Source of the DNA: an uncultured Chloroflexia bacterium
Lineage (GTDB): Bacteria > Chloroflexota > Limnocylindria > Limnocylindrales > CSP1-4
DNA: 64,000 nt
NCBI GenBank assembly: GCA_963724095.1
Contig: CAVRTH010000001.1
Coordinates: forward strand, 66,754 to 130,753
Direction of reading: 5' to 3'
The notes below the pieces were generated by a model. It did no database searches, was not told the origin of the DNA, and was given only the letters and a program-made list of their open reading frames with translations. Both the position numbers and the translations under genes were made by a program. Shown here piece by piece: positions 1 through 64,000 of this stretch. Positions within the stretch are counted from its first letter, which is position 1. Each line of letters starts with the position of its first letter.

Positions 1-3000
1 AGATCTGCGTCTACAACGAGATGCTCAGCGCCATCCAGGGCCGCTACCCGGAGCACATGTACGTGGCCCTGGGCGGGGTGGACAAGGAGACCGCGCGCTT
101 CCGGACCGCTGACTTCCGAGCCTACTTCCGTGCTGTCAGGGCCCGCTTCCTCGACGTCGTCGGCGCGCCGCCCCCGGGCTCCTACCCTCCCCCGCCACCG
201 TCGTATCCGGAACCGACCGAGCACTGCGGTGTCTGCAGCTGGGATGAGATCTGCAGCAAGCGCCGCCGGGCGGACGACCACCTCTCGCTGGTGGCCAACA
301 TCACCTCGCGCACGCGCGGCGCCCTGGTGGATCGCGCCATCGACACGCGCCGAGCGCTGGCCGGCCTCGAGCTGCCACTGGATCCCCGCCTGGAGGGAAC
401 ACGGCCGGAGGTGCTGGAGCGCGTCCACGAACAGGCTCGCCTCCAGGTGCAAGGTGAGGACGAGGGTCGCCACATCCACGAGCTGCTGGAGCCCTATCGA
501 ACCGACGGACGGCGAGCTCGACACGACCAAGGGCCTGCTGGCGCTGCCGCCGCCCAGCCCGGGCGACCTCTATCTGGACCTGGAGGGTGACCCCTTTTCG
601 GGCGAGGACGGCATGGACTACCTCTTCGGCCTGCTCGAGCCAGCTCGGCGGGATGCCGTGGGTGACCCGCTATTCCACGCCTTCTGGAGTCGCGATGACG
701 AGGGTCGGGTGACCGAGGCTGCGGAGAAGGCCGCATTCGAGGCCACCATCGACAAGATCATCGCCTGCCTGGATGCGGATCCGGGCCTGCACGTCTACCA
801 CTACGCGTCCTATGAACCCAGTCACCTGGGCAAGCTCATGGGCCGCTACAACACCCGCCAGGACGAGGTCGACCGACTCTTCCGCGGCGACGTGCTCGTG
901 GACCTCTACCGGGTCGTGCGACAGGGTATCCGCGCGTCCGTCGAGAGCTACTCCATCAAGAAGCTGGAGCCCTTCTACGGTTTCGAGCGCGAGATCGAGC
1001 TGCGCGATGCGGGCTCATCGATCGTGGAGTTCGAGCACTGGCTGCAGCTGGGCGGGATCGGTGGCGTGGGCGAGGAGATCCTCGACCAGATCGACCGCCT
1101 ACAACCGGGACGACGTAGTCTCCACCCTGGAGCTACATCGCTGGCTGGAGACGCAGCGCGCCGCACTCGGGGAACGGCTGGGACAGGAGCTGCCGCGGCC
1201 GCAGGCCCGGGACGGCGAGGCGGAAGAGGGCTTGTCGGCCTGGCTGCAGCGCGTCCGGGAGGTCGCCGAACCGCTGACCGCGGGCATCCCCCTCGATGAG
1301 AGCGAGCGCGACTGGACGCCACAGGAACGCGGTCGGCTCCTGCTGGCCAACCTCCTGGGCTGGCATCGGCGCGAGCAGAAGCCCGACTGGTGGCGCTGGT
1401 TCAGTCAGCTGGAGGCGACCGAGGAAGACCTGCTGGAGGCGCGCGAGCCACTGGCTGCCCTGGAGCTGGTGGGCGCGGAGGATGAAGGCGGGCGCACCTT
1501 CCGTTACCGATACCCGGAGCAGGAGTTCGACGTGCACAGTCGGGCCACCGATCCGGTCACGCTCAAGGAGCTGCCCGTCGTCGAGACCGACCTCGATAGG
1601 AACGAGATCGTGCTGCGCTTCCCCGCCCGGCGGGAGATCGAGCATCCGCGCGCGCTCGTGCCCAAGACGGTGGTGCCGTCGCCCGCCCAGGAGCAGCGGC
1701 TGCTGGACATCGGCCAGTGGGTCGTTGACCACGGAAACGACATCGAGAGCGACGGCGAATACCGAGCGGCGCGGGACCTGATCGTGGGCCGGACTCCGCG
1801 TTTGGAGCATCATCCTGAGGGTGAGCCGCTGCGTCTCGTGGGTGAGTCGGCCGGCAAGGCTGCGCGGCGGCTGGTGAAACAGCTGGACCGGACGTGCCTG
1901 GCCATCCAGGGTCCGCCCGGTAGCGGCAAGACCTGGATCGGCGGGCGCATGATCCTGGACCTCGTGGCGCAGGGCAAGACGGTCGGGGTGACCGCCGGCA
2001 GTCACAAGGTCATCGGTAACCTGCTGGACAACGTCGCGATGGCGCAGGCCGAGCATCCTGACTTCAAGGCTCGCGAGGTCGTCATCCGCCAGAAGCCCGG
2101 GGACTCGGGCGAGTGCACCTGCGCCTACGCGGAACCCATCGGCAAGGCAGAGGACGTGGCTGGCGCCCTGGCCGACGGCTCGGCCGACGTCATCGGCGGA
2201 ACCGCCTGGTTGTGGGCCAGCGCCAAGATCCCGACTGAGGCGGTCGATGTCCTCTTCATCGACGAGGCCGGCCAGTTCTCGCTGGCCAACGCCCTTGCCG
2301 TCTCAGCCGTGGCCAAGTCCATCGTGTTGCTGGGTCGATCCGCAGCAGCTGGACCAACCGCTGAAGGGCTCGCATCCCATCGGTGCGGAACGGAGTGCGC
2401 TGGCGCACCTGCTGGGTCGTGAGAACGCGGTCATGCCGCCGGAGCTGGGCCTGTTCATGGACAAGACCTGGCGGCTGCACCCCGACATCTGCAGCTACAC
2501 CTCGGAGGTCTTCTACCAGGACGCTCTCTTCCCGGAGAGCGGCAACGAGAAGCAGGCACTGGCAGGACAGGGCCTGGCCGATGGCGAGGGCATCCGCTTC
2601 ATCGCGGTGGACCATGGGGATGCGCGCAATGACAACCGCTCCATCGAGGAGGCGCGGGTCATCGCCGACCTCGTCGGTGAGCTGCTCGACGGCCGCGCGA
2701 CGTGGCTGGACCGTGAAGCTCGTGAAGGCGCCCATCAGGCCCCATGACATCCTCGTCATCACGCCCTACAACGCGCAGCGGACGCTCATCGGGACGGAGC
2801 TGCGGCAAGCGGGGGCCGGCCTGCGCGCAGGTACCGGTGGGTACGGTGGACAAGTTCCAGGGCCAGCAGGCGCCGGTCTCGATCTACTCGATGGCCACGT
2901 CTCGGCCGGAGGATGCCCCGCGCGGGATGGAGTTCCTGTACTCGCTCAACCGGCTCAACGTCGCTACGTCGCGTGCGCGCTGCCTGACGCTGGTGGTGGC

Positions 3001-3109
3001 CTCGCCGGAACTCATCGAGGTGCAGGCCAAATCGCCGCGCCAGATGATGCTGGCCAACGCGCTGTGCCGATTGCACGAGGTGGCGAGGGTGCAATCTGAT
3101 GCCGGGTGA
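1..3109 (+). pseudogene. Cas4/RecB-like nuclease + RNase H-like exonuclease + SF1 (DNA2/Upf1-type) helicase; 5' end lies outside the window; at least 5 frameshifts
   Basis: There is no stop upstream of nt 1 (frame 3 reads ..ICVYNEMLSAIQGRY). Motifs: Cys cluster HCGVCSWDEIC plus DDHLSLVANI (TM0106-type RecB nuclease end); DLYLDLEGDPF..DYLFG (RNase H-like exonuclease); Walker A GPPGSGKT (1909-1932); DEAGQ; VLLGDPQQL; TPYNAQ; TVDKFQGQQAPV; ATSRAR. Homology runs through track ORFs 21..590 > 130..1299 > 773..2422 > 2247..2747 > 2383..3099 > 2744..3109, shifting +1 near ~495, ~1099, ~2336, ~2720 and ~2825. Confidence 0.8.
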
Positions 3110-4013
3110 ACTTGTCATGCGCGAGAATGGCGACGATGCACAGATGAACGAGCATGGACTGCGGGGAACACGCGGAGCAGCATGGACCAGCCTTGAAATC
3201 GAGGCGACGGTTGCGGCATATGAAGACATGTTGCGCAAGGAACTCCGTGGAGTGCGATATGCGAAGGCCGATGTAGTCCGTGACTTGATGAAGCTGATGC
3301 CCGAGAGGACGCGGGGAGCCATCGAGCTGAAGCTCCAGAACGTTTCGCGCGATCCGGGCTGAGCTGGCTTGCCCTGGATCGATGGATACAAACCGATGGC
3401 GCACTACCAGAGTGCGTTGCGTGATGCGGTAGTCGCCCGCGCGGACCCACGGGAACGCATCAACGAGGCCATCGCCGAGTTCGGCGAGGCACCTGTCGTC
3501 GGCGCGCATGGAATCCCTCGATCGACGTCAGATGTCCTGGTACCGCCACCAAGTGCTTCGCGCGCACGCACAGCGGCCGGACGTCGGTTTCGATGCACCG
3601 GAACCGCTCACGATGCCATTCGCGACCTCCGCCGGCACCAGTTAGGTACCGCAGGTGAGGAATGGGTAACGGAACTTGAGAGAGAGCAGCTATCGAGGGC
3701 CGGACGGTCGGACCTCGCCGATTTGGTTCGCTGGGTAGCGCGCGACGATGGGGATGGAGCCGGGTACGACATCCTCAGCTTCTCGGAAGCTGGCACTCAG
3801 CGACTCATCGAGGTCAAGACCACCAACTACGGTCCGTTGACCCCGTTCTACATCACGAGGTGGGAAGTGGAGGTGTCACAGACACATCGAGACTCATACT
3901 CGCTCTACCGTGTGCACGGCTTCGCACGTGATCCGCGCATCTACGTCCTTGATGGAGCCATGGACGAGGCTGCTCGGCTCGAACCGAGCGTGTTTCTGGG
4001 GCTGCCAAGGTGA
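3099..4013 (+). pseudogene. DUF3883 (NO VEIN C-terminal-like) PD-(D/E)xK nuclease-fold protein, interrupted by an in-frame TGA
   Basis: Track ORFs 3099..3362 and 3369..4013 share one frame and are separated only by TGA at 3360-3362. The N part has W..LEIEATVAAYEDMLRKEL.G..Y.K...R..GAIELKLQNVS. The C part has GYDILSF..RLIEVKTT..YSLYRV (D...E-x-K core). Reading 3349-3366 in the +1 frame gives AIRAEL, bridging NVS to LPWIDGYKP. Confidence 0.65.
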
Positions 4014-4034
4014 AGTCGGACAGAGGTCGGTCGG

Positions 4035-5318
4035 GTGAGCGAGACGGCGGCTCCCCGCGTCGTGGAGCTCTTTGCTGGCGTGGGTGGCTTCCGCATCGGG
4101 CTGGAGAAGTCTGGTTGGGAGACCGTCTGGTCGAATCAGTGGGAGCCGAGCACCAAGACCCAGCATGCATTCGACTGCTACGTGGAGCGGTTCGGCGGCG
4201 ACGGAGCCGTATGCGAGGACATCCACGAGGTCATGAATCAGGCGGAGGCAGGGAGGCGGGCCATCCCGGACCACGAGCTTCTCGTGGGTGGCTTCCCATG
4301 TCAGGACTATTCGGTCGCGAGAACTGCCAACCAGGCGGCTGGTCTCGTGGGCAAGAAGGGCGTGCTTTGGTGGGAAATCCACCGCCTCCTGACGATGAAG
4401 CGACCGCCCTACCTGTTCCTTGAGAACGTCGATCGTTTGCTGAAGTCACCGACCAGCCAGCGTGGACGCGACTTCGGGGTGATGCTGGCGACCCTGGCGA
4501 ATCTTGGCTATGAAGTCGAATGGCGAGTGGTCAACGCCGCGGACTACGGCTTCCCGCAGAAGAGACGGCGGGTGTTGCTTGTTGGCCGCTACGTCGGTTC
4601 GATCGATCGCGACCCGAACGAGGCCATCTACGAGGGACCGCTTGCGCGCGCCCTGCCCGTCAGAGAGGGCCCTGTCCTGTCGTCCTCGCCGACCTTCACC
4701 GTCGACGGCAATCCTGCCGACGTATCCGAGACGTTCGGCGCCACCAAGGGTGCCTCTCCGTTCCGAAACGCCGGCTACATGTCACAGCGTCGCGTCTGGA
4801 CCCTGGACCTGGAGCCCGCGTGGGATGGCGAGGTCGTGACACTCGGAGACATCCTGGAGCGGACTGATGATGTCCCAGAGCAGTACTTCGTCACGGCCGA
4901 TGAGCTCCCACGGTGGGAGTACCTGAAGGGCGCCAAGCGGGAGCAGCGCTATCACAAGGGCTCCGGCACGCCCTACTTCTATGTCGAGGGACCGATCCCG
5001 TATCCGGACCGCACCGACTGGCCCGCGAGGACCATCCTGACGGGCGAAGGGGGCCGCACACCATCGCGCTTCAAGCACCTCATCCAGGTCGAGGACGGCC
5101 GCTATCGCCGTCTTACCCCTCGAGAGCTGGAGCGCCTGAACGGGTTCCCCGATGACTGGACTGACACGGGCATGCCTGAGGGGCGACGTGCATTCATGAT
5201 GGGAAACGCGCTCGTGGTCGGGCTGATCGAGCGTGTCGGGGCCGAGTTGATGAGCGAACTCCGAGCGACGCACGGGTTCAACCGCCCTCCGGGAGATCCA
5301 GAGTCGGCCGTTTCCTAG
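4035..5318 (+). CDS. dcm: DNA (cytosine-5)-methyltransferase
   Basis: Uninterrupted 427-aa ORF with a GTG start. C5-MTase motifs are in canonical order: ELFAGVGGF (I), GGFPCQDYS (IV), LFLENV (VI), QKRRRV (VIII), GNALVV (X), with a long variable region between VIII and IX. Confidence 0.93.
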   Translation: MSETAAPRVVELFAGVGGFRIGLEKSGWETVWSNQWEPSTKTQHAFDCYVERFGGDGAVCEDIHEVMNQAEAGRRAIPDHELLVGGFPCQDYSVARTANQAAGLVGKKGVLWWEIHRLLTMKRPPYLFLENVDRLLKSPTSQRGRDFGVMLATLANLGYEVEWRVVNAADYGFPQKRRRVLLVGRYVGSIDRDPNEAIYEGPLARALPVREGPVLSSSPTFTVDGNPADVSETFGATKGASPFRNAGYMSQRRVWTLDLEPAWDGEVVTLGDILERTDDVPEQYFVTADELPRWEYLKGAKREQRYHKGSGTPYFYVEGPIPYPDRTDWPARTILTGEGGRTPSRFKHLIQVEDGRYRRLTPRELERLNGFPDDWTDTGMPEGRRAFMMGNALVVGLIERVGAELMSELRATHGFNRPPGDPESAVS

Positions 5319-5909
5319 GCTCGCGTTCCCGAACGTGTCCCACCGAAGGCATCGGTGGGTGTCCACCCCTCGGTGCTCAACCCAATCAAGAGCAGCGGCA
5401 CCGGAAGGATCGGCTTCATCTCGCGCAACCAAGCTTTGAAAGCATCGAAGGTCCCAACCGCAGAGTCCATCCTCGACCAAGCTTTCAGCGACTCGGTCGC
5501 GGTGATCGACGACGCCGACGTGGATACGAGACGACTCGATCACTCGTTCCGACTCACCGGCGATATTGAGGCGAGTGAACTGCCAGGGGATAGCCTCAGC
5601 ATGATTGAACGAGACCTCGACTCCCACGTTTGCGCGAAGGAAGTCCATCTTCCATTTGCGGAGCTCCGGACTCGTGAAGAGCCGGGGCTGGTGAGTCCAT
5701 GCCGGTTCTGGAAGCAGATCCTCAAACAAGGCGTTCAGGGCGGTTTGGCCTCCCCTCGGTGTCCGTCCCCTTGACGCAAGTTGGGTCTGCTTGTCGATGA
5801 CCATCGATCGGTCGATCGCTTCGATCGCGTCCCGGATGTCCAGCCATGCCGTGTGATCACGAAGGAACGCTGCCGCGTGCCGGAAGTCCTCGATCACGTA
5901 TTCCATCAT
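5315..5909 (-). pseudogene. Type II restriction endonuclease, BglII-like fold, with one +1 frameshift
   Basis: The N part of track ORF 4782..5909 reads ..WKMDFLRANVGVEVSFNHAEAIPW..SSRIHVGVV (D-x8-E-x-S, compare BglII D-x8-E-V-Q). After ~5507 the conserved reading continues in the next frame: ITATESLKAWSRMDSAVGTFDAFKAWLREMKPILPVPLLLIGL, ending at a TAG at 5315-5317. The span is 595 nt (3n+1). The annotated ORF otherwise runs antisense through dcm. An RBS GGGAGG (5912-5917) favours the second Met (5906) as the start. Confidence 0.7.
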
Positions 5910-5917
5910 CGCCTCCC

Positions 5918-5955
5918 GTTCGATACGAGCCTACGCTCCCCGCTCTGTTCGATAC
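5918..5955. promoter_or_regulatory. Direct repeat GTTCGATAC x2 in the divergent endonuclease/vsr intergenic region
   Basis: Exact 9-mers at 5918-5926 and 5947-5955 (29-bp period) lie within the 54-bp gap between the endonuclease start (5909, minus strand) and the vsr start (5964, plus strand). Confidence 0.35.
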
Positions 5956-5963
5956 TTGTGGAG

Positions 5964-6401
5964 ATGCCCGGCCTGCAGCTACCCAATCCGCCTGCTTCGT
6001 CACAAGCCGTACGTGCCGTAATGAAGGCGAATCGGGCCAAGAACACCAGGCCCGAGCGAACGCTTCGCTACGCGCTGCGGGCAGCGGGCTACCCCGGGTA
6101 TCGGCTGAACTGGAAGCGAGCGCCCGGTCGGCCGGACATCTCGTATCCCGGTCGGCAGGTGGCCGTCTTCGTGCACGGCTGCTATTGGCACCACTGTCCG
6201 CGCTGCCACCCAAACCTGCCCAAGTCGAACCCGGAGTTCTGGGCGCGCAAGTTCGAGTTGAACCGCGAGCGTGATGCCCGCAAGCGACGACAGCTCGAGG
6301 ACGCCGACTGGCGAGTCTTCGAGATCTGGGAGTGCGACATCCGCGACCGACTGAGCGGCGTGGTCGTGGAGATCGCAACGACGCTCCAGGACCGCGCCTA
6401 A
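5964..6401 (+). CDS. vsr: Very short patch repair endonuclease
   Basis: MPGLQLPNP..RPERTLRYALRAAGYPGYRLNWK..RPDISYPGRQVAVFVHGCYWHHCPRCH..FWARKFELNRERD matches the Vsr family throughout. The start was chosen at the ATG at 5964; the upstream part of track ORF 5781.. shows no homology. Confidence 0.9.
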   Translation: MPGLQLPNPPASSQAVRAVMKANRAKNTRPERTLRYALRAAGYPGYRLNWKRAPGRPDISYPGRQVAVFVHGCYWHHCPRCHPNLPKSNPEFWARKFELNRERDARKRRQLEDADWRVFEIWECDIRDRLSGVVVEIATTLQDRA

Positions 6402-7555
6402 CCCGCCCCCATTCCGCGGGCCCGCCGCGCCCGCTCCACCGGCACGGTCAGCAGCAGCACACCGGCAACGACCGCCGGCACCAGCAGCCAGGCCGTGCTG
6501 ATGTCGCTCACGTCCGCGACCACCCCCAGCAGCAGCGGCGCCACCAGGATGGCCAAGCCCGCCGCCAGCACCAGGCGAGCGGACGCCGCAGCCGGCCGAT
6601 CGGGCGCCGCCGCCAGCGTGATCGAGGCGCACGGCGGATAGAGGATGCCCACGCCGAAGCCGGCCAACAACATGCCGCCCGCGCTGACTAGGTAGTCGCC
6701 AGACAACCACACCACGACGACCGCCACGAACGTGACCACGATGCCCACGCGGATCACCAGCATCGGGTCGAGCCGGCCCATCGTTCGCACGGACATCACC
6801 GCCCGGCCTGCGATCATGCCCGCGATGAAGGCGGAGATCGTCAGCGTCGCGTCGGCCAGCGAGACGCCCGTCCGCGACTCCACCAGCGTGCCACCCCAGA
6901 CGACCACGAAGAACTCCATGCCGATGACCGACACCGTCAGGAACCAGGGCAGCCAGAAGGCACGCGGCAGCCGGCCCAGCTCGATGTGCATCGCCGCGTC
7001 GGGGCCGCCGGAACGCGCCCAGACGGTCAGCCCAGCCACCAACAGCAGCACCGGCACGATCACGAACTGCCAGTCGAGCCCGAGCGCGATGCCCACCCCG
7101 ATGGCCACCGGCGCCATCAGCTGCGCCGCCTTGGCGACGAAGGCCGAGCGCGTCAGCTGCACCCGCGCCACAGCGCCCCCACCGCGCCCCAGCGTCTGGT
7201 TGACGTGCCCGAACATCGTCCCCGCGCCGAGCCCGATGCCAAGCGACGCAAGCAGCGTCAGCGTCAGCACCGGCGCGAGCGCCAGCACCACCAGTGATAC
7301 GGCCAGGAGCCCCATCGCAAGGTAGTGCGCCCGGTGAACCCCCAGCCAGCGATCGAACCGTTCCCCTGCCAGGCCGGCCACGATCATCCCGGCCGCCATC
7401 GCGGACGAGTGCAGCCCCGCCTGCGTCTCCGACAGGCTCAGGGTGACAGCGATGAATGCGGTCGCGGCACCCACCACGTAGAAGGCATAGCTGATGGCCG
7501 CCTGGTTCACATAGGCGCGCCGAACCTGTGGTGTGGGCGCATGGCTTGAGGTCAC
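6398..7555 (-). CDS. MFS transporter
   Basis: 385-aa polytopic hydrophobic protein with about 12 predicted helices and an MFS-like loop between helices 2 and 3 (GERFDRWLG). It converges on vsr with a 4-nt overlap. Confidence 0.8.
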   Translation of the reverse strand: MTSSHAPTPQVRRAYVNQAAISYAFYVVGAATAFIAVTLSLSETQAGLHSSAMAAGMIVAGLAGERFDRWLGVHRAHYLAMGLLAVSLVVLALAPVLTLTLLASLGIGLGAGTMFGHVNQTLGRGGGAVARVQLTRSAFVAKAAQLMAPVAIGVGIALGLDWQFVIVPVLLLVAGLTVWARSGGPDAAMHIELGRLPRAFWLPWFLTVSVIGMEFFVVVWGGTLVESRTGVSLADATLTISAFIAGMIAGRAVMSVRTMGRLDPMLVIRVGIVVTFVAVVVVWLSGDYLVSAGGMLLAGFGVGILYPPCASITLAAAPDRPAAASARLVLAAGLAILVAPLLLGVVADVSDISTAWLLVPAVVAGVLLLTVPVERARRARGMGAG

Positions 7556-7653
7556 ACCCTGATGCTACCGGCCCGCCGCCGATGGGCAGGGCCACAAGCC
7601 CCCGATAAGCGAGCGAAGAGCCACCGCCAAGTGCCACTCGCCAGGGTGGCGCC

Positions 7654-8310: not shown

Positions 8311-8315
8311 TGGCG

Positions 8316-8335
8316 ATATAGCATCGATGCTATAT
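8316..8335. promoter_or_regulatory. Perfect 20-bp palindrome (candidate TA operator) overlapping a -10-like TATATT
   Basis: ATATAGCATC|GATGCTATAT at 8316-8335 lies 15 nt upstream of the toxin ATG (8350). It is the only AT-rich patch in the local sequence. Confidence 0.6.
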
Positions 8336-8349
8336 TCCACATCGTCGGC

Positions 8350-9732: not shown

Positions 9733-9734
9733 CA

Positions 9735-9765: not shown

Positions 9766-9768
9766 ACC

Positions 9769-10373: not shown

Positions 10374-10392
10374 GGGAACGAGGACCTGGACC

Positions 10393-20454: not shown

Positions 20455-21091
20455 TCAGTCGCGCTCGAGACCGGCAAGGTCAGCCGGCGAGTCGACATCG
20501 GGCATCGAACCCTCGACCGGGACCTCCTCCACCGCGTCCGGGCGCGAGTCGATGAGTGCGGCGAGGCCGTGGTCACCCTCGATCTCGTCGACCCATGTCC
20601 ACGCCGCTCGCAGCAGCAACACCGGGTTGCGTGCCGCGCTGTGCGCATAACGGGGCACGAGCACGGGGCGATCCACCGCGGGCGAAACGGCAGCCGCTGA
20701 CAGCCAGAGCCTGCAGGACGTCCGCACGCAATCGTGGCTGGTCGCCAAGCACGATGAATGCACCGTCGAACACCGTCGGGAGTGCGCGCAGCGCGTCGAT
20801 GCCGACCTGCAGCGACGATGCCAGGCCGCGGTCAGGCGCATGGTTTCGGATGCGCAGCTCGTCGCGCCAGTCGAGTGATCGCTCGATCGCCTCGGCGCCG
20901 TGGCCAAGTACCACGACCGTGACAGCCGGCCCGAACGCACGCACGGCGCCCAGCACCCGGGCCAGCATCGGCTGACCCTCGTGCTGCGCCATGAGCTTGG
21001 CCCCGGGCTCGTCGGAGAAACGCGACCCGGCACCGGCCGCCAGCACGACAGCCGCAAGGTGGGGTCGTCGATCCATCGACTGACCGTACAC
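20455..21091 (-). CDS. MobA-like NTP transferase / molybdenum cofactor cytidylyltransferase (MocA-like), frameshifted as assembled
   Basis: The N part (track 20573..21091) reads AAVVLAAGAGSRF..LGDQP. The C part continues in track frame 20455..21057 (RPVLVPRY..RNPVLL..IEGDHGLAALI..PDVDSPADL). The switch is near ~20695. The span is 637 nt (3n+1). Alternative start at 21076. Confidence 0.7.
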
Positions 21092-30085: not shown

Positions 30086-31027
30086 GTGCCACATACTTCG
30101 CACGTGTCAGACCGCCAGGCGCACCCGAAGAGCAGAACGGTGCATCCGAACAACACCCTCAACGAACTCGGCGGCGACGAGTGGCTCTACTTCACCAAGT
30201 CGCTGCTCACCACGGCCTATCCGTCAGAGCTGGGCCACGCCGCGCGCAAGGCGCACGGTGCCAACAAGCCGCCGCGACTGATGGCGAGGCTCATCGAATT
30301 CTTCACCAAGGGTGGCGAACTGGTGCTCGACCCCTTCGCCGGTGTCGGCGGCACGCTCCTGGGTGCCGCTATCTGCCGCTCGCCTCGGCGCGCCCTGGGG
30401 TTCGAGATCGAGCCCCGCTGGGCCGAGGTCTACCGTGCCCTGGCAGCCGACGCCGCGGCACAGGATGGGGGAGCGGGTCTCATGCTCACCGACCTGGGGG
30501 ACAACGATCCCGGCGGACCGCGGCGTTTCGACGCGTCAGGCTGCCGGCTGGAGGTGGGCGATGCGCTGTCGCTGGTCCGCGATGTAGGCGACGCCAGCGT
30601 GGACCTGGTCGCCACCGACCCGCCCTACAACCCACAGTTGAAGGCGACGATGTCCGGCGGCGCACTGGCAGAACGGTTCGCCAATCGTCGCACCGACTAC
30701 GCCATGATCAGCGACGATCCGGCCGACCTCGCCAACAGCACCACCTACGCCGAGTACCTCGAGCGCATGGCCGCCCTCTTCGGGGAGCTGCGACGCGTGC
30801 TGCGGCCGAAGCGCTACGCCGTGATCATCGTCCGCGACGCGTACCAGCAGGGGCGATATCGCTTCGTCGCCTCGGATCTCGCCGCGCGGGCCGAGCCGCA
30901 TGGCTTCACCACCAAGGGCGACCTCATCTGGTACCAGGCAGGGACACGCCTGCGGCCATATGGCTACCCGCATGCGTTCGTGCCCAACATCGTTCACCAG
31001 CACATCCTGGTGCTGCGCGCCGAGTAG
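30086..31027 (+). CDS. N6-adenine/N4-cytosine-type DNA methyltransferase with alpha-type (I before IV) motif order
   Basis: KPPRLMARLIEFFTKGGELVLDPFAGVGGTLLGA (motifs X/I) precedes SVDLVATDPPYN (motif IV) and ..LRPKRYAVIIV... No adjacent nuclease gene. The GTG start at 30086 is uncertain (alternative GTG 30140). Confidence 0.75.
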   Translation: MPHTSHVSDRQAHPKSRTVHPNNTLNELGGDEWLYFTKSLLTTAYPSELGHAARKAHGANKPPRLMARLIEFFTKGGELVLDPFAGVGGTLLGAAICRSPRRALGFEIEPRWAEVYRALAADAAAQDGGAGLMLTDLGDNDPGGPRRFDASGCRLEVGDALSLVRDVGDASVDLVATDPPYNPQLKATMSGGALAERFANRRTDYAMISDDPADLANSTTYAEYLERMAALFGELRRVLRPKRYAVIIVRDAYQQGRYRFVASDLAARAEPHGFTTKGDLIWYQAGTRLRPYGYPHAFVPNIVHQHILVLRAE

Positions 31028-33560: not shown

Positions 33561-34063
33561 ATGAAACGACCTATCGGAGTGGTTCTCCTCGCCGCAGGCG
33601 CGGGGCTCCTCGTCCTGTACAACCTCTACAAGGTGCTCCTGTACCTGGGCGTCCTCAACTTCCCTGTCGGCAACCACGAGCTCTCGTTCGCCGGCAACGC
33701 CCAGTGGGGCGCCGCCCTGTGGGCCTTGCTCATCGCGGCGATCTGGGCGTGGGTGGCACTCGGCTTCTGGAATGTGCGGGCCTACGCCGCCCAGTTCGGC
33801 ATCTTCATCAGCCTCTTCACGCTGATCTGGGGCTTCTTCGCCCTGCTGTTCGGCTCGAGCGTCGACGCTGAGACGATCCGTGGCTGCTGGCCGGCGCCAT
33901 CTACCTGTACCTAAGCTGGCCTGGCGTTCAGCAGCACTTCATCGAGAACGAGAAGTCGCGGCTCACGCCGGAGCAGATCGCCGCCATGGAGCAGCTGCAA
34001 GCCGCCAACATCGCGGCCAACGCCAAGCCCGCGCCGGGGATGGGGTCAACCGATACCAACTAG
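33561..34063 (+). CDS. Small membrane protein, -1 frameshift as assembled
   Basis: MKRPIGVVLLAAGAGLLVLY.. (RBS GGGAGA). After ..SSVDAETI (~33879) the hydrophobic reading continues in the adjacent frame: WLLAGAIYLYLSWPGVQQHFIENEKSRLTPEQIAAMEQL.., to a TAG at 34061-34063. The span is 503 nt (3n-1). Confidence 0.55.
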
Positions 34064-35731: not shown

Positions 35732-37216
35732 ATGTCCACTGAACCGATGGTCCTGGCCATCGACCAAGGCACTACCAACACGAAGGCCATCCTCGTCGAT
35801 CGAGCTGGTGTCGTGCGGGGCATGTCGTCACGCCCGGTAGATATCGAGTTCCCGCGCTCGGCGTGGGTGCAGCAGGACGCGGAGTCCATCTGGCAGAGCG
35901 TCCGCGAGGCGATCGACGAGTGCCTGGTCACGGCGGGGTCGCCGAAGGTGGCGGCCGTGGGCGTGTCGAATCAGCGTGAGTCCGGCCTGGGCTGGGATGC
36001 GGCGACGGGCAAACCCATCGGGCCTGTCGTCACGTGGCAGTGCCGTCGCTCCGCCGCATTCTGCGAGCAGCTGCGCTCCAGTGGCCTCGAGGATGACATC
36101 CGCGAGCGGACTGGGCTGCCCATCGACCCGATGTTCACCGGCTCCAAGATCAGGTGGCTGCTGGACGATACGCCCGATGGCCACGCGAGGGCCCTGGAGG
36201 GCAAGATCCGCGTCGGTACCGTGGATAGCTGGCTGTTGTGGTGCCTGACGGGAGGCACGCACCATCGAACTGATGTGAGCAATGCCTCACGTACCCAGCT
36301 GCTGAACATCTCCGAGCGGCGCTGGGACCCTGTCCTGCTCGAGTACTTCGGTGTGCCCGAGGCCGCGCTGCCCGAGATCCTGCCCTCGAGCGCGGTGTTC
36401 GGCGAGACGGTCGCCCTCGGCTCCCTGCCAGCCGGCATCCCCATCGCCTCCCTGATCGGCGATTCCCATGCCGCGCTCTTCGGGCACGCCGGTTTCGCGG
36501 CAGGCTCGGTGAAGGCGACCTACGGGACGGGCAGCTCGTTGATGACGCCGACCGCCCAGCGGGTCGGCAGCGACAGTGGCCTGGCCTCGACCATCGCCTG
36601 GGGCCTGGGTTCGACCGTCTATGCGCTGGAAGGGAACATCTATGTGACCGGCGCGGCCGTACAGTGGATGGCTGACTTCATCGGGCTGGAGGGACCGGGC
36701 AAGGTCGCGGAGCTGGCCGAGACCGTGACCGATACCGAAGGCGTGTATCTGGTACCGGCATTCGTGGGCCTCGGTGCCCCACACTGGGACGACAGTGCAC
36801 GCGGCATGCTCACCGGGCTGACCCGCAGCTCCAACCTTGCACAGGCCGCGCGCGCGGTGATCGAGTCGATCGCCTACCAGGTGCGGGACGTCTTCGACGA
36901 GATGCAGTCCGCCACAGGTGGGGCGCTGCGCGTGCTGATGGCCGACGGGGGAGTAACGCGCAACACCCAGCTGATGCAGTTCCAGGCGGACATCCTGGGC
37001 GTCCCGGTACAGCGCAACAACACGCCCGAGCTCTCCGCCATGGGCGCCGCCTACCTGGCCGGCCTGTCTGTTGGCATGTGGCCCTCGACCAAGGCCATCG
37101 AAGCGCTGCCCAGGTCTATCGATCGCTTCGAGCCTCGTATCGATGACGCTGAACGTGACCGCCTCTACGGCGGCTGGCATGAGGCCGTAGCCCGCACCAT
37201 GTTCAAGCCCTCATGA
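35732..37216 (+). CDS. FGGY-family carbohydrate kinase (glycerol-kinase-like)
   Basis: LAIDQGTTNTKAILVD.., ..NQRESGLGWD.., VTWQCRR.., ..GDSHAALFG.., GGVTRN. 494 aa. The substrate cannot be determined from the sequence. Confidence 0.85.
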   Translation: MSTEPMVLAIDQGTTNTKAILVDRAGVVRGMSSRPVDIEFPRSAWVQQDAESIWQSVREAIDECLVTAGSPKVAAVGVSNQRESGLGWDAATGKPIGPVVTWQCRRSAAFCEQLRSSGLEDDIRERTGLPIDPMFTGSKIRWLLDDTPDGHARALEGKIRVGTVDSWLLWCLTGGTHHRTDVSNASRTQLLNISERRWDPVLLEYFGVPEAALPEILPSSAVFGETVALGSLPAGIPIASLIGDSHAALFGHAGFAAGSVKATYGTGSSLMTPTAQRVGSDSGLASTIAWGLGSTVYALEGNIYVTGAAVQWMADFIGLEGPGKVAELAETVTDTEGVYLVPAFVGLGAPHWDDSARGMLTGLTRSSNLAQAARAVIESIAYQVRDVFDEMQSATGGALRVLMADGGVTRNTQLMQFQADILGVPVQRNNTPELSAMGAAYLAGLSVGMWPSTKAIEALPRSIDRFEPRIDDAERDRLYGGWHEAVARTMFKPS

Positions 37217-37228
37217 GCACACCGGTGA

Positions 37229-37426
37229 TGCCAAGTTCCCGACCGCTGCCTTCTACATCGAGACCACGATCAAGCAGGACGACGGCATCGGAGTCCGGTC
37301 GTGGAGCAAATCACCCCTGGCTCTCCCGACGATGTCGCTGGGCTCGTGCTCTTCCTCGCCTCGGATGAGGCCTCATACATCACCGGCCAGACCATCAACG
37401 TGGACGGCGGCCTGATCATGTCCTGA
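37229..37426 (+). pseudogene. C-terminal remnant of a short-chain dehydrogenase/reductase (SDR)
   Basis: ..[36 protein letters not shown] (stop 37424-37426) is the canonical SDR C-terminus. No Rossmann N-terminal part and no start codon lie upstream. The left boundary is approximate. Confidence 0.6.
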
Positions 37427-45078: not shown

Positions 45079-45155
45079 TGGTAGGGGAGCCAGGATTTCG
45101 AACCTGGAACCAGTCGGATATAAGCCGACCGCTCTAACCGTTGAGCTACTCCCCC
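45079..45155 (-). tRNA. tRNA-Ile, anticodon UAU, CCA-encoded, with an 8-nt T-loop
   Basis: Hand-folded from the reverse complement: GGGGGAG-UA-GCUC-AACGGUUA-GAGC-G-GUCGG-CUUAUAU-CCGAC-UGGUU-CCAGG-UUCGAAAU-CCUGG-CUCCCCU-A-CCA. All stems pair (G1:U72 wobble). U8, A14, GG18/19, U33 and A37 are present. A73, U12:A23 and C29:G41 match Ile identity elements. It is 77 nt against the canonical 76. Confidence 0.8.
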
Positions 45156-51574: not shown

Positions 51575-55216
<3,642 letters not shown>

Positions 55217-55479
55217 TCAGGCCTCCTTGGTATGTGGCTTGGATCACCCGGGCTTTGGTGTGGACTCGGGTCTAAGAGGGGTATGTCCCGCGACCAAGGC
55301 GAGGCCACGGATCGACACTAGTGTGCGCTGCTGGGCAAGGCCAACGGCAGGGCCGATAGGCCCCCCGTGGGGCAGGTGAGCGGTCACCTCTGCAGCATGT
55401 TCCACGGCGCTGCTCGCTCGCGGACGGCTGGCAGGCCTGACGCCGGGAGGTTACGCTGGCATCCCAACGGAGGAGGAAG

Positions 55480-56562: not shown

Positions 56563-56596
56563 AAGGCGTCGGCCAACAGGCCCCGTCACCAGACTG

Positions 56597-56638
56597 CCCC
56601 GTCACCCGGTCTCGCCGGCCGGGCGACGGGGTTTCTTC
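56597..56638 (+). terminator. Rho-independent terminator
   Basis: CCCCGTC(accc gg..cc ggg c)GACGGGG stem followed by TTTCTTC (56632-56638), 35 nt after the stop at 56562. Confidence 0.6.
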
Positions 56639-56667
56639 ATGGGCGCGAGCGGTGCCGCGCGGGATGG

Positions 56668-57516: not shown

Positions 57517-57579
57517 ACAGAATCGGGACGGCGGGCCCGGCCGGGCCCGCCGCTTCGAAGGTCCGACGAGGCGCGCGGA

Positions 57580-57990
57580 TCAGTGGCCGCAGGCGCCGGG
57601 TGCCCCAGCCGAATCTTCGGTGCGGAAGCTGCTGCCGCAGCCGCACCCCGAGACGGCATTGGGGTTGTTGACGGTGAAACCGGCCCCCATGAGTGTGTCG
57701 ACGTAGTCGATCTCGGAGCCCTGGAGCAACTGCCTCGACTGCGGGTCGACGTACACGTTGATGCCCTTGGATTCGACTTTGATGTCCTCTTCGGCGGGCT
57801 GGTCCTCGAGCATCATGCCGTAGCGGTAGCCGCTGCAGCCACCGCTGTAGACGTAGACGCGGAGCCCCACGTCAGGGTCGGTCTCGTCCCTGGTCAGCTC
57901 GGTGAGCTTGGCCACGGCCGCATCGGACAGGGTCACGAGGGGCTCGGAGAGCGGGGCGGTCTGGGGTGCCTGGGGCTGCGTCTCGAGCAT
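57580..57990 (-). CDS. Iron-sulfur cluster insertion protein (IscA/ErpA/HesB family)
   Basis: ..VTLSDAAVAKL..GLRVYVYSGGCSGYRYGM..GAGFTVNNPNAVSGCGCGSSF.. Confidence 0.88.
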   Translation of the reverse strand: MLETQPQAPQTAPLSEPLVTLSDAAVAKLTELTRDETDPDVGLRVYVYSGGCSGYRYGMMLEDQPAEEDIKVESKGINVYVDPQSRQLLQGSEIDYVDTLMGAGFTVNNPNAVSGCGCGSSFRTEDSAGAPGACGH

Positions 57991-58217
57991 CGAGTGGGGA
58001 CCTCCGGGATCTTGGCGTCGGTGCGGACATCTCCGCGGGCGTAAATCCTACCTTCACGCTACGGATTGAGCAACCGCGGGGCCCGACCGACCACGCCGGC
58101 CGGGTCCATCACGGGCGTGGGTGTGCAAGCTGATATGCAGGAGGGTGGTCTGCGATGGTGACGAGCCGTACTGCCGGGTGGTGGTTCGGATCGGCGCCGG
58201 GCGACAGGCTGTCGCTC

Positions 58218-58799
58218 ATGAACATCGGCCCTGCTCGAGTCACAAGTCTTGCCCTGGCGATCGCCGCACTGCTGGCCATCTCACTTGTCGGTCCGGCTAC
58301 TGCTGAATCCACCGTGGTGCGTGTCCCGAGCGCGGAGAAGTACGCCAAGAGCCTGCTCAACTGCACCCGCACGGGCGGCTGGGTCGAAGCCGATGGCAGC
58401 TGCAGCGATCGCGGCAGCGGCAAGTACTCGGCCTATCGCAAGCCACTGCCGCGTCACCGGGGCATCAGCCGGAAGGTGGCCTGGCCCTGGGCGCGCAACA
58501 TGGTCACGTACGACGTCTGTGGTCACGTCATCGCCGGCAAACCGGAACTCGGCAGCCGCATGCTGCGCAAGGGCTACCGATATCCCTTCTACGGCGAGAA
58601 CGTCGGTTGTGGCTGGGGCTATGGGTCGGCCGAGGACGTCGTGCTCGCCACCCATCTCGCCATGCAGGCGGAGAAGGCCTACCGCGGCGGACACTGGAAG
58701 AACATGAAGAACGACGGTTTCCGCAGCGTCGGCGTCGGCGTCGCCACCCGCGATGGCGTCACCATGGTGGTCTTCGACTTCTACGGGAAGCGCTGGTAG
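58218..58799 (+). CDS. Secreted CAP/SCP (PR-1-like) domain protein
   Basis: MNIGPARVTSLALAIAALLAISLVGPATA signal peptide. The C-terminal ..GENVGCGWGY..AMQAEKAYRGGHWKNM.N..FRSVGVGVA is typical of bacterial CAP domains. Confidence 0.65.
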   Translation: MNIGPARVTSLALAIAALLAISLVGPATAESTVVRVPSAEKYAKSLLNCTRTGGWVEADGSCSDRGSGKYSAYRKPLPRHRGISRKVAWPWARNMVTYDVCGHVIAGKPELGSRMLRKGYRYPFYGENVGCGWGYGSAEDVVLATHLAMQAEKAYRGGHWKNMKNDGFRSVGVGVATRDGVTMVVFDFYGKRW

Positions 58800-58850
58800 C
58801 AAAGCGCTTCACGGCGGCCCGCCACCCAAGGCAGCCCGAGGCGCGCGAGA

Positions 58851-60077
58851 TCAGGCCTCCGGGTTCTCCACGATCGTGGCGATGCCCTGCCCCACTCCGA
58901 TACACATGGTGGCGAGGCCGTAGCGCGCTCCTCTCGCCCGTAGTTCGTGGACCAGCATCGTGAGCAGCCGCGCCCCGCTCATCCCCAGTGGATGACCCAG
59001 CGCGATGGCGCCACCGTTGACGTTGACTCGCTCTACGTCAAGCTCCAGCTCACGGATGCAGGCGATCGACTGGCTGGCAAAGGCCTCGTTGAGCTCGATG
59101 AGGTCGAGGTCGTCGACCGAAAGGCCGGCTCGTTCGAGCGCCTTGTATGTGGCCGGCACGGGTCCCATGCCCATCACCGAGGGATGTACCCCGGCCACGG
59201 CCGTGCTGATGACCCGGGCCAGTGGTCGAAGCGCCAGGGTACGGGCGCGATCCGCCTCGACGACCACGAGTGCAGCAGCACCGTCGTTGATGCCCGAGGC
59301 ATTCCCGGCCGTGACAGTGCCGTTCTCGCGGAAGACCGGCTTGAGGGCGGCCAGCGCGGCGTCGGTGGTGGCGGGCCGTGGATGCTCGTCGCGATCGACC
59401 CGGTGCACGGAGCCGTCGGGCTGGGCGGCTTCGACGGCCACCAGTTGAGCATCGAAGCGGCCGGCCGCGATGGCATCGGCGGCCCGTCGCTGGCTGTGGA
59501 GCGCGAACGTATCCTGCTCCTCGCGTGTGATGCCCCACTGTTCCGCCACCAGCTCGGCAGTCTCTCCCAGTGGCAGGACCGGATAGGCAGCCTCCATTCG
59601 TGGGTTGACGAAGCGCCACCCCAGGGTGGTGTCGGCACGCTCGGGCGGGGTGCCCGAACCCGGCTCCGGCTTGAGCTCGACGATGGGTGCGCGGCTCATC
59701 GATTCCACGCCACCCGCGATCATCACCTCGCCATCGCCGGCCATGATGGCGTGGGCGGCGCTGTTGACTGCCTGCAGGCCCGAGCCACACAGTCGGTTGA
59801 CCGTCTGGCCGGCGACCTCCACCGGCAGGCCGGCGAGGAGGGCCGCCATGCGCGCCACGTTGCGGTTCTCCTCACCGGCCCCGTTGGCATTGCCGAGGAT
59901 GACATCATCGATGGCGGCCGGGTCGATGCCACTCCGCTCGACGGCGGTACGGACCACCAGCGCGGCCAGGTCGTCAGGGCGAACGGAGCGCAGCGCGCCA
60001 TCGCGCCGGCCGATGGGCGTTCGCACCGCCTCCACGATCCAGGCCTCCCGGAGACCGCGCTTCAGGTTCCGCTTCAC
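58851..60077 (-). CDS. Acetyl-CoA C-acyltransferase (thiolase)
   Basis: ..[12 protein letters not shown] (active-site Cys), ..NEAFASQ.., [20 protein letters not shown], ..MCIGVGQG... Confidence 0.92.
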
Positions 60078-60087
60078 ACACGCGATG

Positions 60088-60840
60088 CTACTGCGCCCGC
60101 AGGAACTGCAGCATCACCGTGTTGAAGGCGGAGGGCCGTTCGGCCACTACCACGTGGCCTACGTCGGGCGCGACGAAGAGCCGAGCGTCGGGCAACTGGC
60201 GACGCAACTTCACGGCCTGCTCCAGCGGCACCCATGGGTCGCGATCGCCGTACGCCAGCAGGATGGGCAGGCGCGCTCGACGGAGCTCCTCTGGCGTGGG
60301 CAGGCGCCCGGCCACGATGTCTTCGCGGATGGCCACCATCAGCTTCTTCCAGGCGCCCGCCCCCTGGACCGGGTCGTGGCGGCGCGCCAGCCGGGCCGCC
60401 CACGCCGGATCCTCACGCTCGATCTTGTCCGGGTCCATCAGGTGACGCGCGACGCTGCTGCGCGGCTCCTTCTCCACACCCACGGCAGCCACGACCGCGC
60501 TGATGATCCGCTCGGGATGCGCCATGGCCAGCGAGAGTGCGGTGCCCGCGCCCATCGAGAGTCCGCCGACGTGGAAGCGCTCCAATCCCAGCGCATCGGC
60601 GAGGGCAAGTGCGTCGTCGAGCAGCATGGCGTGGCTCCAGCCAGTGTCCGTGTCCCAACGCGTACCGGCATGGCCCCGCGCATCGGGCAGGAAGAGCCGG
60701 AAGTGGTTCCGCAGCACGGGCCGCTGCGCGGCCCAATCCTCGGTCGCCGAAGAGGTCGCCGCGTGCAGCAGCAGCAGCGGTGGGCCCTCACCCTCGGCGG
60801 TGTAGCTGATATCCAGCCCGTTGGCGCGGATGATGGTCAT
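60088..60840 (-). CDS. Alpha/beta hydrolase
   Basis: PLLLLHA.., nucleophile elbow GLSMGAG, and a C-terminal ..GHVVV.E.P. Confidence 0.85.
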
Positions 60841-60884
60841 GGTCCCGATGTTCGCACGTCAGGACGGGTAGGCTGTGCGGCCTC

Positions 60885-61547
60885 ATGACCAACGACGACC
60901 ACCCGATCGAGGATGAGTTGCGCATCCGCCGGGTCGCCCACCGGGCCAGCTACGATCGCGACACCATCCACCGCATCGTCGACGCTGCGCTCATCGCCCA
61001 CGTGGGCACGATCCGGGATGGCAAGCCCATCGTCATCCCCATGCTGGCAGTGCGCGATGGCGAATGGCTGCTGCTGCACGGCGCACCCGCCGCCGGCACC
61101 GTTCGACGCGGTCGTGGACAGCCGGTCTGTGTGGAGATGACACTGCTCGACGGACTGGTCCTGGCCCGGTCAGCCTTCCACCACTCGCTCAACTACCGCT
61201 CCGTGGTGATCCATGGCGAAGCAGAGCTCGTCAGCGACGCGGACGAGCGGGCCCACGCCCTCGACCTGATCATGGAACGCCTGGTACCCGGACGCGGGGC
61301 GCAGCTACGCCCCACCACGGACGCCGAGATCAGGCAGACAGCTGTCTTGCGTATCTCGTTGGAGCGCGCCTCTGCCAAAGTGCGCAGCGGGCCTCCAGGC
61401 GATGACGAGGCGGATTACGACTTTCCCGTCTGGGCCGGTGTGGTGCCGGTCAGCACAAGCACGGGCCAACCCTCGCCGGACCCACGCCTGATGCCCGGCA
61501 TCGAGCTCCCACAGAACGTGCGGGACCTGGCTGAGACGCCACGCTAG
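60885..61547 (+). CDS. Pyridoxamine 5'-phosphate oxidase-family FMN-binding protein
   Basis: ..RASYDRDTIHRIVDAALIAHVG.., ..SAFHHSLNYRSVVIHGEAELV... Split-barrel family pattern; 220 aa. Confidence 0.75.
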   Translation: MTNDDHPIEDELRIRRVAHRASYDRDTIHRIVDAALIAHVGTIRDGKPIVIPMLAVRDGEWLLLHGAPAAGTVRRGRGQPVCVEMTLLDGLVLARSAFHHSLNYRSVVIHGEAELVSDADERAHALDLIMERLVPGRGAQLRPTTDAEIRQTAVLRISLERASAKVRSGPPGDDEADYDFPVWAGVVPVSTSTGQPSPDPRLMPGIELPQNVRDLAETPR

Positions 61548-61562
61548 ACCAGATCTCGGCGA

Positions 61563-61892
61563 TCAGCTCCCACCGAGCGGGGACGGTTCGAGCGGCCGCT
61601 CCAGGACGTCTTGCTGCTCCGGGTGCTTCTGCAACCAGCCCACCACGAAGGGGCACTCAGGCACGACCCGCAAGCCGCGCTGCCGGGCGTCATCGATGAC
61701 GGCCTCGACGAGACGGCTGCCGACTCCCTGGCCTTCGAAGCCTTCCTGCACCACGGTACGGACCAGCACCATGCGGTCAGCCGACAACTCGTAGTCGAGC
61801 AGCGCGGCCATCGCGGGGTCATCGCCCAGCGTGGCTTCATAGCGCTGATGCTCGGGCACGTCGCGCACGGCCAGCACAGGTCGTTCGCTCAT
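61563..61892 (-). CDS. Small GNAT N-acetyltransferase (YjdJ-like)
   Basis: 109 aa with ..FEGQGVGSRLVEAVIDDARQRGLRVVPECPFV.. Confidence 0.8.
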   Translation of the reverse strand: MSERPVLAVRDVPEHQRYEATLGDDPAMAALLDYELSADRMVLVRTVVQEGFEGQGVGSRLVEAVIDDARQRGLRVVPECPFVVGWLQKHPEQQDVLERPLEPSPLGGS

Positions 61893-61940
61893 CGCCCCTC
61901 CTTGAACGCCTCGAACATCTGCGGTAGCAGCGCCGACGGC

Positions 61941-63129
61941 TCAGCATAGAAGGCATCGCCATCGACCTCGATACGCGCGCGTGGCGACGGCGGCGAGATC
62001 GACCGGTCGGGTGGCGATGAACTCGCGGATGACCTCGGCGTGCGGCTTCAGCGAGCCATCCGGTCGCAGCAGGCCGAAGTGCCGCTCGTGCAGCTTGGTG
62101 TCGCACGGCGGGCGGTCCCACAGTCGCTCGTGGTAGTCGGCAAAACACCACAGCATGGCCCCCCGGGAGCCGACCTCGACCAGCCGCGGCAGCACCTCTT
62201 CAAGATGCTCGGCCAGCGCCGCCTCGGACAACATGATCTGGCGCCAAGGCTGTCCCTGCACCTCCCATTCCCACGTCGTGGTGTCCTCACCGGGCGGCGC
62301 GGTGCAGGCTCCGAACTCCTCCATCATCGTGGGTTTGCCCGACAGCGCCGCGGTGAGTGCCGTGGCGAAGGGCACGGTGTCGGGATCGAGCGCGTCGGCT
62401 CCGAAGTTGGCGTAGATGGGATACGTGTGCATGACCGCGATATCCGCGTCTTCGAACATGCGGTCGGCTCGGAGTCCATTGGCCTGCGACATCAGCGACG
62501 GCGCGTGCAGACCGATGGTTCGGTGCCGCGCGGGATCGAGACTCACGGATGGCGCCGAACATGCGATGCGCCCAAGCTGGGCCGGCGACGGCGTCGGGTG
62601 GGAGAGCGAAGTTGTCCGGCTCGTTGCCCAGGTTCCAGGCCCACACGGCGACATGGTCGCGCAGCCGGCTCACGACTTCTCGCAGCAGCATCTCAGCCGC
62701 ATCCAGCGCCATGGGGTCCACCCATGGGTTGCGGTACGGGCCAGCATCGAGGTTGCCGCCGCTGATGACCTGCCGCCCTTCGGGCACTGGCTCCACGCCA
62801 CCCAGGAGCCACGCCGGCGCCCAGTTGGGACCGCTCATGTGGCCGGTGAAGAACGTCACGTCGAGGCCGAGACCACGCTCGGCCGCCACGTCGGCCACGA
62901 TCTCCAGTTCGGCCAATGCTCGCGAGGACACTGCCGTGGGTGTCGGCGCGAAGTCCTCCCACAGCAGGAAGATGCGCACCAGTGTCATACCCAGTCCGGC
63001 GATGACGTCGAACTCTGCGGCCACCTCGTCGCGGTCGAAGTCCTTCCACCAGTACATCGCCTTGCGGCGCGGCCAGTAGTTGACGCCGACCGGGAAGGGC
63101 TGACCGATGGCCAGATCGGCAGGGCTCAC
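61941..63129 (-). CDS. Glycoside hydrolase (GH5/clan GH-A-like), +1 frameshift as assembled
   Basis: N part (track 62287..63129): GVNYWP..LGMTLVRIFLLWEDF..WNLGNEPD (NEP acid/base motif). Continuation (track 61941..62654): SLDPARHRTIGLH..MHTYP..PTMMEEFG (nucleophile Glu). The switch is at ~62541. The span is 1189 nt (3n+1). The GTGA start overlaps the GH36 stop. Confidence 0.7.
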
Positions 63130-64000
63130 GCGGGCACCCGCAGCAGCTCGAACACGCGAGCGCCGAAGTCGCCGCGCTGCTGCGATTCCCAGGCGTGGTC
63201 ATCGAGGAACAGCCCGGTGGCCATGAGATCGTCACCGCCGCGCAGCATGACGTTGGCGCGGCTGACCCAATCCTCTGCCTCCGGCCAGACGCTCACGGCA
63301 TAGGTCGCGGCCGGGTCGAGCCCGCGGAGCGGCAGCAGCGATGGACCCGGCAGTGGACGCGACAGCGCTCGATACCAGCCCACCAGCGCGTGGCCGGCGT
63401 CATCGGCCACCACCATCCAGGCGGTCTCGTTGCGGTCGCCCTCGAAGGGACTCAGGAGACGGTGGAAGCGGCCCCGGTGCAGCAGCTCGCGGCGTTCCTT
63501 GTACCAGGCGATCTGCTGCTGCACGCGTTCGTGCTCCAGGTCATCGAGCTTGCGCGGGTCCAACTCGTAGCCGAGGTTGCCGAAGAAGGCCACCGCGGCT
63601 CGCGTGTCCAGCGGCGTGGTCCGACCCACCTGGTGGTTGGGCACCGCCGAGACGTGCGCGCCCATCGCTACCAGCGGATATACCAGCGAGCTGCCGTACT
63701 GGATGCGCTGGCGCTCCACGGCGTCGGTGTCGTCGCTGGTCCAGACCTGGGGTGCGAAGGCCAGCATGCCGGGGTCATTTCGGCCCCCACCGCCGGCACA
63801 GGACTCGAAGAGGATGTCGGGGAAGCGTTCGGTCAGCCTGGCGTAGAGGTCATAGACACCGAGCATGTAGCGGTGGAAGAACTCGTTCTGCCGCTCCGGT
63901 GGCAGCGAGGCTCCGAAGGGCTCGGTGATGACCCGGTTCATGTCCCACTTGACGTAGGTGATGGGCGCGCTACCGAGCACGGCACCGATGACCCGCTCCA
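63126..64000 (-). CDS. Alpha-galactosidase (GH36), C-terminal part; the gene continues beyond the window
   Basis: ..YVKWDMNR.., FESCAGGGGR, VWTSDDTDA. The frame stays open upstream of the track Met to nt 64000. Confidence 0.88.
   Translation of the reverse strand, partial: ERVIGAVLGSAPITYVKWDMNRVITEPFGASLPPERQNEFFHRYMLGVYDLYARLTERFPDILFESCAGGGGRNDPGMLAFAPQVWTSDDTDAVERQRIQYGSSLVYPLVAMGAHVSAVPNHQVGRTTPLDTRAAVAFFGNLGYELDPRKLDDLEHERVQQQIAWYKERRELLHRGRFHRLLSPFEGDRNETAWMVVADDAGHALVGWYRALSRPLPGPSLLPLRGLDPAATYAVSVWPEAEDWVSRANVMLRGGDDLMATGLFLDDHAWESQQRGDFGARVFELLRVPA

Follow-up and report, generated by a model that had tools for sequence, protein, structure and literature searches.

The window considered here is the whole 64,000-nt stretch C1:66754-130753 from the 3.33 Mb genome (19 contigs, 68% GC) of an uncultured Chloroflexota lineage, and the features in question are the single-base insertions and deletions that interrupt conserved genes within it. 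An earlier reading made from the letters alone (the sequence-only reading) had listed broken frames in a MocA-like gene, a LAL-type regulator, a transketolase C subunit, PFOR, a GH5-like hydrolase, a small membrane protein, a tRNA and a defence-type island, and had reported that 11 of 12 coding frameshifts went in the +1 direction. All of these lesions were found to exist, and in the directions given; coding sequences of the window carry 11 single-base insertions and one single-base deletion, and there is one extra base in the T-loop of the tRNA. A codon-usage model was trained on the long open reading frames (ORFs) of the genome and used for a 7-state Viterbi decoding, first of the window and then of the whole genome. 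In the window, this placed direct same-strand frame switches at or near every position named previously. The sites are listed below by position in the window and strand, with alignments denoted A1 to A8.

506, plus strand: 1-nt insertion in a nuclease/SF1-helicase gene, cgaaccga[C]ggacgg; absent from all four homologues aligned, one each in G001 and G002 and two in G005 (A2).
1093..1095 (about 1095), plus strand: 1-nt insertion in the helicase gene, CAGATC[G]ACC, where the nearest homologue reads CAGATCACC; of the GATCA to GATCGA type (A2, column 1003).
2335..2336, plus strand: 1-nt insertion in the helicase gene, GGG[T/C]GATCC; of the TGATC to TCGATC type (A2, column 2253).
2714, plus strand: 1-nt insertion in the helicase gene, GACCG[T]GAAG (A2, column 2634).
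2803, plus strand: 1-nt insertion in the helicase gene, GCTG[C]GGC (A2, column 2723).
5500..5512 (about 5507), minus strand: +1 shift in a BglII-like endonuclease ORF, between IHVGVV and ITATESLK, gene-strand GTCGT[C]GATCACC; placed by three-frame translation and context only.
20702, minus strand: 1-nt insertion in a MobA/MocA-like NTP-transferase gene (20455-21091), plus-strand CTGAC[A]GCC (A7, against G005).
29052, minus strand: 1-nt insertion in the LAL-type regulator (AAA_16 ... GerE), plus-strand ATGT[C]GATCTCC (A4, against G009 and G002; Pfam).
33880..33881, plus strand: 1-nt deletion in a small membrane protein (33561-34063), ACGATCCG[-]TGG (A5, against G005, G001 and G009).
38756, plus strand: 1-nt insertion in the transketolase C-subunit gene, GGCA[G]AGATCC (A1, against six congeners).
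45096..45098, minus strand: extra A in the T-loop of tRNA-Ile(UAU), GGTTCGA[A]ATCC, giving a loop of 8 nt (Rfam alignment; A8, against seven genomes).
54398, minus strand: 1-nt insertion in PFOR (nifJ-type), plus-strand GGACG[C]ACACG (A3, against five congeners; Pfam POR_N, then PFOR_II...).
62541, minus strand: 1-nt insertion in the GH5-like hydrolase (61941-63129), plus-strand GATCGAG[A]CTC (A6, against four congeners).

Lesions in the window were checked individually by aligning the surrounding DNA with orthologous stretches from the same genus, which were approximately 80% identical; between one and seven other genomes were available per lesion. All 11 aligned lesions (10 coding, one tRNA) were private to this assembly, and the relatives lacked the extra base, or kept the missing one, in each case. 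The halves of the broken genes were mapped with Pfam and NCBIfam profiles, and the tRNA by Rfam alignment. For the transketolase C subunit, PFOR, the LAL-type regulator and the MocA-like gene, the two halves fell on successive parts of a single family; the transketolase halves, for example, occupied positions 4-68 and 76-170 of Transket_pyr, while the N-terminal MocA fragment covered positions 1-108 of 160 of NTP_transf_3. An orthologue of the LAL-type regulator was intact, as a single ORF of 1088 codons, in a short-read JGI contig from a related species (L123). Neither half of the GH5-like hydrolase matched a Pfam or NCBIfam profile, and its family name is unconfirmed. Another frame switch, flagged by the detector at approximately 35040, proved to be the normal junction of an RbsD/FucU-like gene with aroE and contained no lesion. 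Short frame blips were also seen at 37212-37295, for which there was no conserved homologue, and at 61898-61972.

Decoding of the whole genome produced 1274 same-strand frame switches. A frame break was counted only where the upstream frame remained open for more than 30 nt beyond the switch, which excludes normal stop-start junctions; 617 switches passed, comprising 473 of type +1 (insertion) and 144 of type -1 (deletion), a highly significant inequality (binomial p = 8e-42). This corresponds to approximately 0.19 breaks per kb as detected, or 0.25 per kb when corrected for sensitivity, so that roughly every fourth or fifth gene is hit. Every contig longer than 100 kb displayed 0.11-0.23 breaks per kb, with +1 events making up 62-81%; the insertion bias first noticed in the window therefore applied everywhere. 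What did not hold was the idea of a window-wide excess as something local, since 10 detector calls were made in the window where 11.9 were expected at the genome rate; the excess is real, and the window is typical of its genome. Spacing between breaks was near-Poisson overall but somewhat over-dispersed, with about 12 stretches of 3 kb holding 5-7 breaks where fewer than one such stretch was expected. Examples of these hot spots are C5:675-681 kb, C5:692-696 kb, C5:117-120 kb and C19:351-354 kb. The completeness estimate for the genome is just 83%, despite two contigs of approximately 1 Mb.

Indispensable genes were struck at about the same rate as others, among them rpoB, rpoC, fusA and the T-loop of the tRNA. 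On contig C2, rpoB was read in at least three frames, with at least two breaks, near C2:106,530 and C2:106,963; rpoC and fusA were read in two each. The rpoB pieces matched positions 2-307, 319-461 and 492-1094 of NF001616, and the pieces of EF-G, encoded by fusA, matched positions 5-389 and 394-688 of TIGR00484 (NCBIfam). One of the rpoB lesions was an extra G, CCC[G]AAC, which separates the Pro codon from the Asn codon in the invariant motif where ETPEG is followed by PNIGL. A viable cell could not tolerate such lesions in rpoB, rpoC and fusA; hence, these are not biological and were interpreted as errors in the consensus.

The rpoC gene (C2:99771-104334) has a further peculiarity, in that it contains a big, lineage-specific insertion in beta-prime, rich in Glu, Ala and Lys. 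This insertion follows the zinc-binding N-terminal region and precedes the LPVIPPDLRP segment, and the frame break lies at its end.

Similar lesions were evident in sister assemblies. G005 carried a private insertion of its own, AT[C]GATCC (i.e., ATGATC written as ATCGATC), of the same type as those in the window. Among 35 congeners with a match, rpoB was split in nine, of which eight were highly contiguous (30 contigs or fewer). Since rpoB is split in these assemblies, the data-quality problem extends to several of the species representatives of the genus. The assemblies with rpoB in at least two reading frames include G005, G022, G023, G034, G038, G044, G048 and G004.

The sequence context of the errors was distinctive. 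It had been remarked of the window that the extra bases often lie outside homopolymers, and the genome bears this out: homopolymers of four or more occurred within 12 nt of 11% of +1 sites, against a background of 13%. In contrast, 38% of +1 sites had a GATC no more than 12 nt away, as did only 13% of random coding positions (p = 1e-41), with a peak at -3 to 0 nt of the predicted switch. The hexamer GATCGA was enriched 7.3-fold at +1 sites (p = 2e-53). Where GATCG occurred near a +1 site, the next base was A in 124 of 191 cases, and a purine was favoured on the 5' side of the motif. Thus, the commonest event was (R)GATCA written as (R)GATCGA or, equivalently, TGATC written as TCGATC; examples are found in the window at about 1095, 2336, about 5507 and 29052, as well as in fusA and in G005. 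Only about 2-3% of GATC-type sites of this kind in the assembly were affected. GANTC was a second, weaker motif, present at 9% of +1 sites compared with 4%; the extra base in the tRNA, which turned GAATC into GAAATC, falls in this class. Five control motifs (GTAC, CATG, CCWGG, GGCC and CTCGAG) showed no enrichment at +1 sites.

Octamers of the form GATCGATC had the highest per-site rate among the motifs tested, since 22 of 139 coding sites coincided with a predicted +1 break. Their excess is consistent with GATGATC having been written as GATCGATC. A four-base fill-in duplication of GATC to GATCGATC, as a restriction/ligation artefact might produce, was considered and rejected; the sole aligned example, the G005 site mentioned above, was a 1-nt insertion.

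The frame lesions were interpreted as consensus errors in a deposited metagenome-assembled genome built from long reads, rather than as mutations of the organism, and this reading was assigned a probability of roughly 0.93. It is favoured because the lesions are private, distributed genome-wide, biased towards insertion, enriched at a motif, and found in indispensable genes and a tRNA. The sequence-only reading had preferred a consensus or polishing artefact, and the genome-wide bias, the broken essential genes and the privacy of the lesions all support that preference. The grounds for the artefact reading are comparative and logical. The deposited sequence retains residual single-base indels scattered at approximately 0.25 per kb, with about five insertions to each deletion, and many of these follow sequence motifs, chiefly GATC (GATCA to GATCGA) and, more weakly, GANTC. 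The platform may have been nanopore-like. A base modification at GATC and GANTC, or a modification state for which the base-caller or polisher was untrained, would distort the signal and cause the consensus to gain a base. Poorer or heterogeneous read support may lie behind the hot spots, of which the helicase gene with its five lesions is one. The clustering at motifs is probably due to methylation-linked error in base-calling or polishing.

Precedents exist for such a process. Nanopore consensus errors accumulate in methylation motifs, for example Dcm CCWGG (PMC6591954); assembly errors linked to GATC and GANTC, and errors introduced by polishers, have been reported (PMC12392509), as have strand-specific errors induced by modification (PMC11610603). 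It may be suggested, tentatively and at somewhat less than even odds, that the excess at GATC (RGATCA to RGATCGA) and GANTC is a footprint of the methylome, adenine or other, of this uncultured Chloroflexota lineage, and that it also exposes a reproducible, insertion-type failure of the base-caller or polisher that has spread into several representatives of the genus.

Several observations weigh against this account. Searches for an independent assembly of this species found none, whether by exact-protein look-up or by a scan of metagenome contigs with a fragment of the LAL-type regulator, in which the best match was 80-86% identical and came from another species; a scan of genome contigs with an rpoB fragment returned only distant taxa, the best being from the Chloroflexota at 73%, so that no same-species comparison was possible. 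The classic errors of nanopore R9 chemistry are homopolymer deletions, the opposite of the pattern described here. GATC and GANTC together account for only about 30% of +1 sites. With regard to methylation of GATC in particular, a D12-class Dam methyltransferase (PF02086) was not detected in this 83%-complete genome; the DNA methyltransferases that were found comprise one distant member of PF01555 (N6/N4; window 30086-31024, plus strand) and one C5 enzyme (window 4035-5315). The PF01555 protein has a permuted profile order, in which segment 148-217 precedes 1-105, and is distantly related to CcrM and to a putative methylase from Thermus (PDB 2zie).

Genuine decay of the genome, in which real frameshift pseudogenes arise by insertion-biased mutation (for instance, through defective repair near GATC), was judged very improbable. 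The sequence-only reading had offered an unusual mutational process as its alternative, and a case can be made: the lesions are truly present in the deposited sequence, their context at GATC is non-random, they cluster locally (about 12 clusters with five or more lesions per 3 kb), and several fall in dispensable genes, including the GH5-like gene and the nucleases of the defence island. However, decay would have had to break rpoB, rpoC, fusA and a tRNA T-loop at about the general rate, and to do so at a density that is uniform over all contigs. Neutral decay would also mix stop codons with frameshifts; yet the whole genome offered no more than 28 candidate stop lesions in frame, many being normal stop-start junctions, to set against 617 frame switches, making nonsense lesions about 20-fold rarer. 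Furthermore, not one lesion was common to this genome and any congener, while the sister assemblies each had different private insertions. An unusual mutational process is therefore unsupported.

Less probable still is that the insertion bias reflects ascertainment, with insertions being merely easier to recognize than deletions in a GC-rich genome where off-frame ORFs stay open. At 68% GC the two alternative frames differ greatly in stop density, and a bias in the reader or the ORF detector was plausible a priori; indeed, deletions were initially expected to be hidden among normal gene junctions. Simulation ruled this out. When random 1-nt indels were introduced into intact genes, 73% of insertions and 74% of deletions were recovered, with similar distributions of overrun; because the detector is equally sensitive in both directions, the +1 bias is real. 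A spot check with Pfam showed that a domain, or a known fused protein, spanned the junction in nine of 10 +1 calls, whereas 10 -1 calls comprised five true events, two clear false positives and three undecided. False positives being commoner among -1 calls, the bias is if anything stronger than raw counts indicate; the true share of insertions lies nearer 85%, or about five insertions per deletion. Stretches of the sister genomes that had not been selected for lesions of their own gave nine private 1-nt insertions and two deletions.

Translational recoding, in which a specific motif would direct programmed +1 frameshifting or quadruplet decoding and the genes would stay functional, could accommodate hundreds of +1 events with a recurrent GATC motif, essential genes included, but was considered scarcely credible, since GATCGA/TCGATC occurs in both gene orientations and several codon phases (showing that the process acts on DNA sequence rather than translation), most sites lack a common codon or slippery sequence and have heterogeneous contexts, -1 events occur too, a tRNA gene carries the same kind of insertion, and the extra base is missing from congeners that encode the same proteins.

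The tRNA-Ile(UAU) gene (45079-45155, minus strand) is 77 nt long, compared with 76 nt in six congeners and 75 nt in one genome from another family; all seven are one base shorter at the T-loop site, in agreement with the original description of one T-loop base too many. The unaltered sequence there, GAATC, is a GANTC site. An 8-nt T-loop would not be expected in a tRNA whose relatives are 76 nt, and, the spurious base aside, the gene looks functional. Direct reading of AUA by a UAU tRNA is uncommon in bacteria. The UAU anticodon and an encoded CCA end are kept in all six congeners examined and in the one other-family genome of the order (L033-L039).

Positions 1-6401 of the window are occupied by a defence-type block that includes the nuclease/SF1 helicase, a DUF3883-like gene, the C5 methyltransferase (TIGR00675), the BglII-like endonuclease and Vsr. 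Six of the 11 insertions in the window fall within it, and the helicase gene, 3.1 kb long, has five of these. In view of how often errors occur across the genome, and of the hot spots, the apparent pattern of broken nucleases beside an intact methylase is most likely an artefact. Homologues of the helicase look intact, on a separate contig in G001 and as two copies in G005, which suggests from their placement that the gene may be part of a mobile element. A BglII-like restriction-modification system in this island was considered as the cause of the RGATC preference; this was unsupported, as the error sites are RGATCA and not RGATCY.

Consequently, the broken PFOR, transketolase, LAL-type regulator and defence-island nucleases, along with the tRNA and its 8-nt T-loop, should be treated as intact pending reads. 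The result governs how any pseudogene call in this genome is to be read, and the same probably goes for several sister assemblies; the apparent pseudogenes of the window should not be taken as biology. Such errors are carried into gene calls, the completeness estimate, protein databases and any account of a decaying defence island. The frame lesions are almost certainly not a biological feature; their value is as a warning of data quality, and they may also trace, indirectly, a modification motif. In this respect, the GATCA to GATCGA signature is a cheap flag for finding and repairing affected assemblies, and may indicate which motif is modified.

Comparison with known systems places these lesions as follows. 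As in the pseudogenes of reductive evolution of the Mycobacterium leprae type, many conserved genes are interrupted once; unlike them, essential genes are struck, nonsense lesions are almost lacking, no lesion is shared with relatives, and the density is uniform and Poisson-like. The resemblance to nanopore errors at methylation motifs lies in a concentration at GATC and GANTC, which are short, palindromic, classic targets of methylation, while control palindromes are unenriched. However, the published cases are mostly substitutions, whereas a one-base insertion (GATCA to GATCGA) is seen here, with methylation presumed and no Dam D12 gene found. The usual errors of long reads are associated with homopolymers and rich in deletions; here, homopolymers are not enriched and there are approximately 3-5 insertions to each deletion. 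In other respects, the genome resembles the long-read-only bacterial and metagenome assemblies in which genes are broken up by residual indels (PMC9262707; proovframe preprint 10.1101/2021.08.23.457338; Kastor, PMC12007338): conserved genes are split by single-base indels, present at a fraction of a per cent and private to the assembly, and marker completeness is lowered despite megabase contigs.

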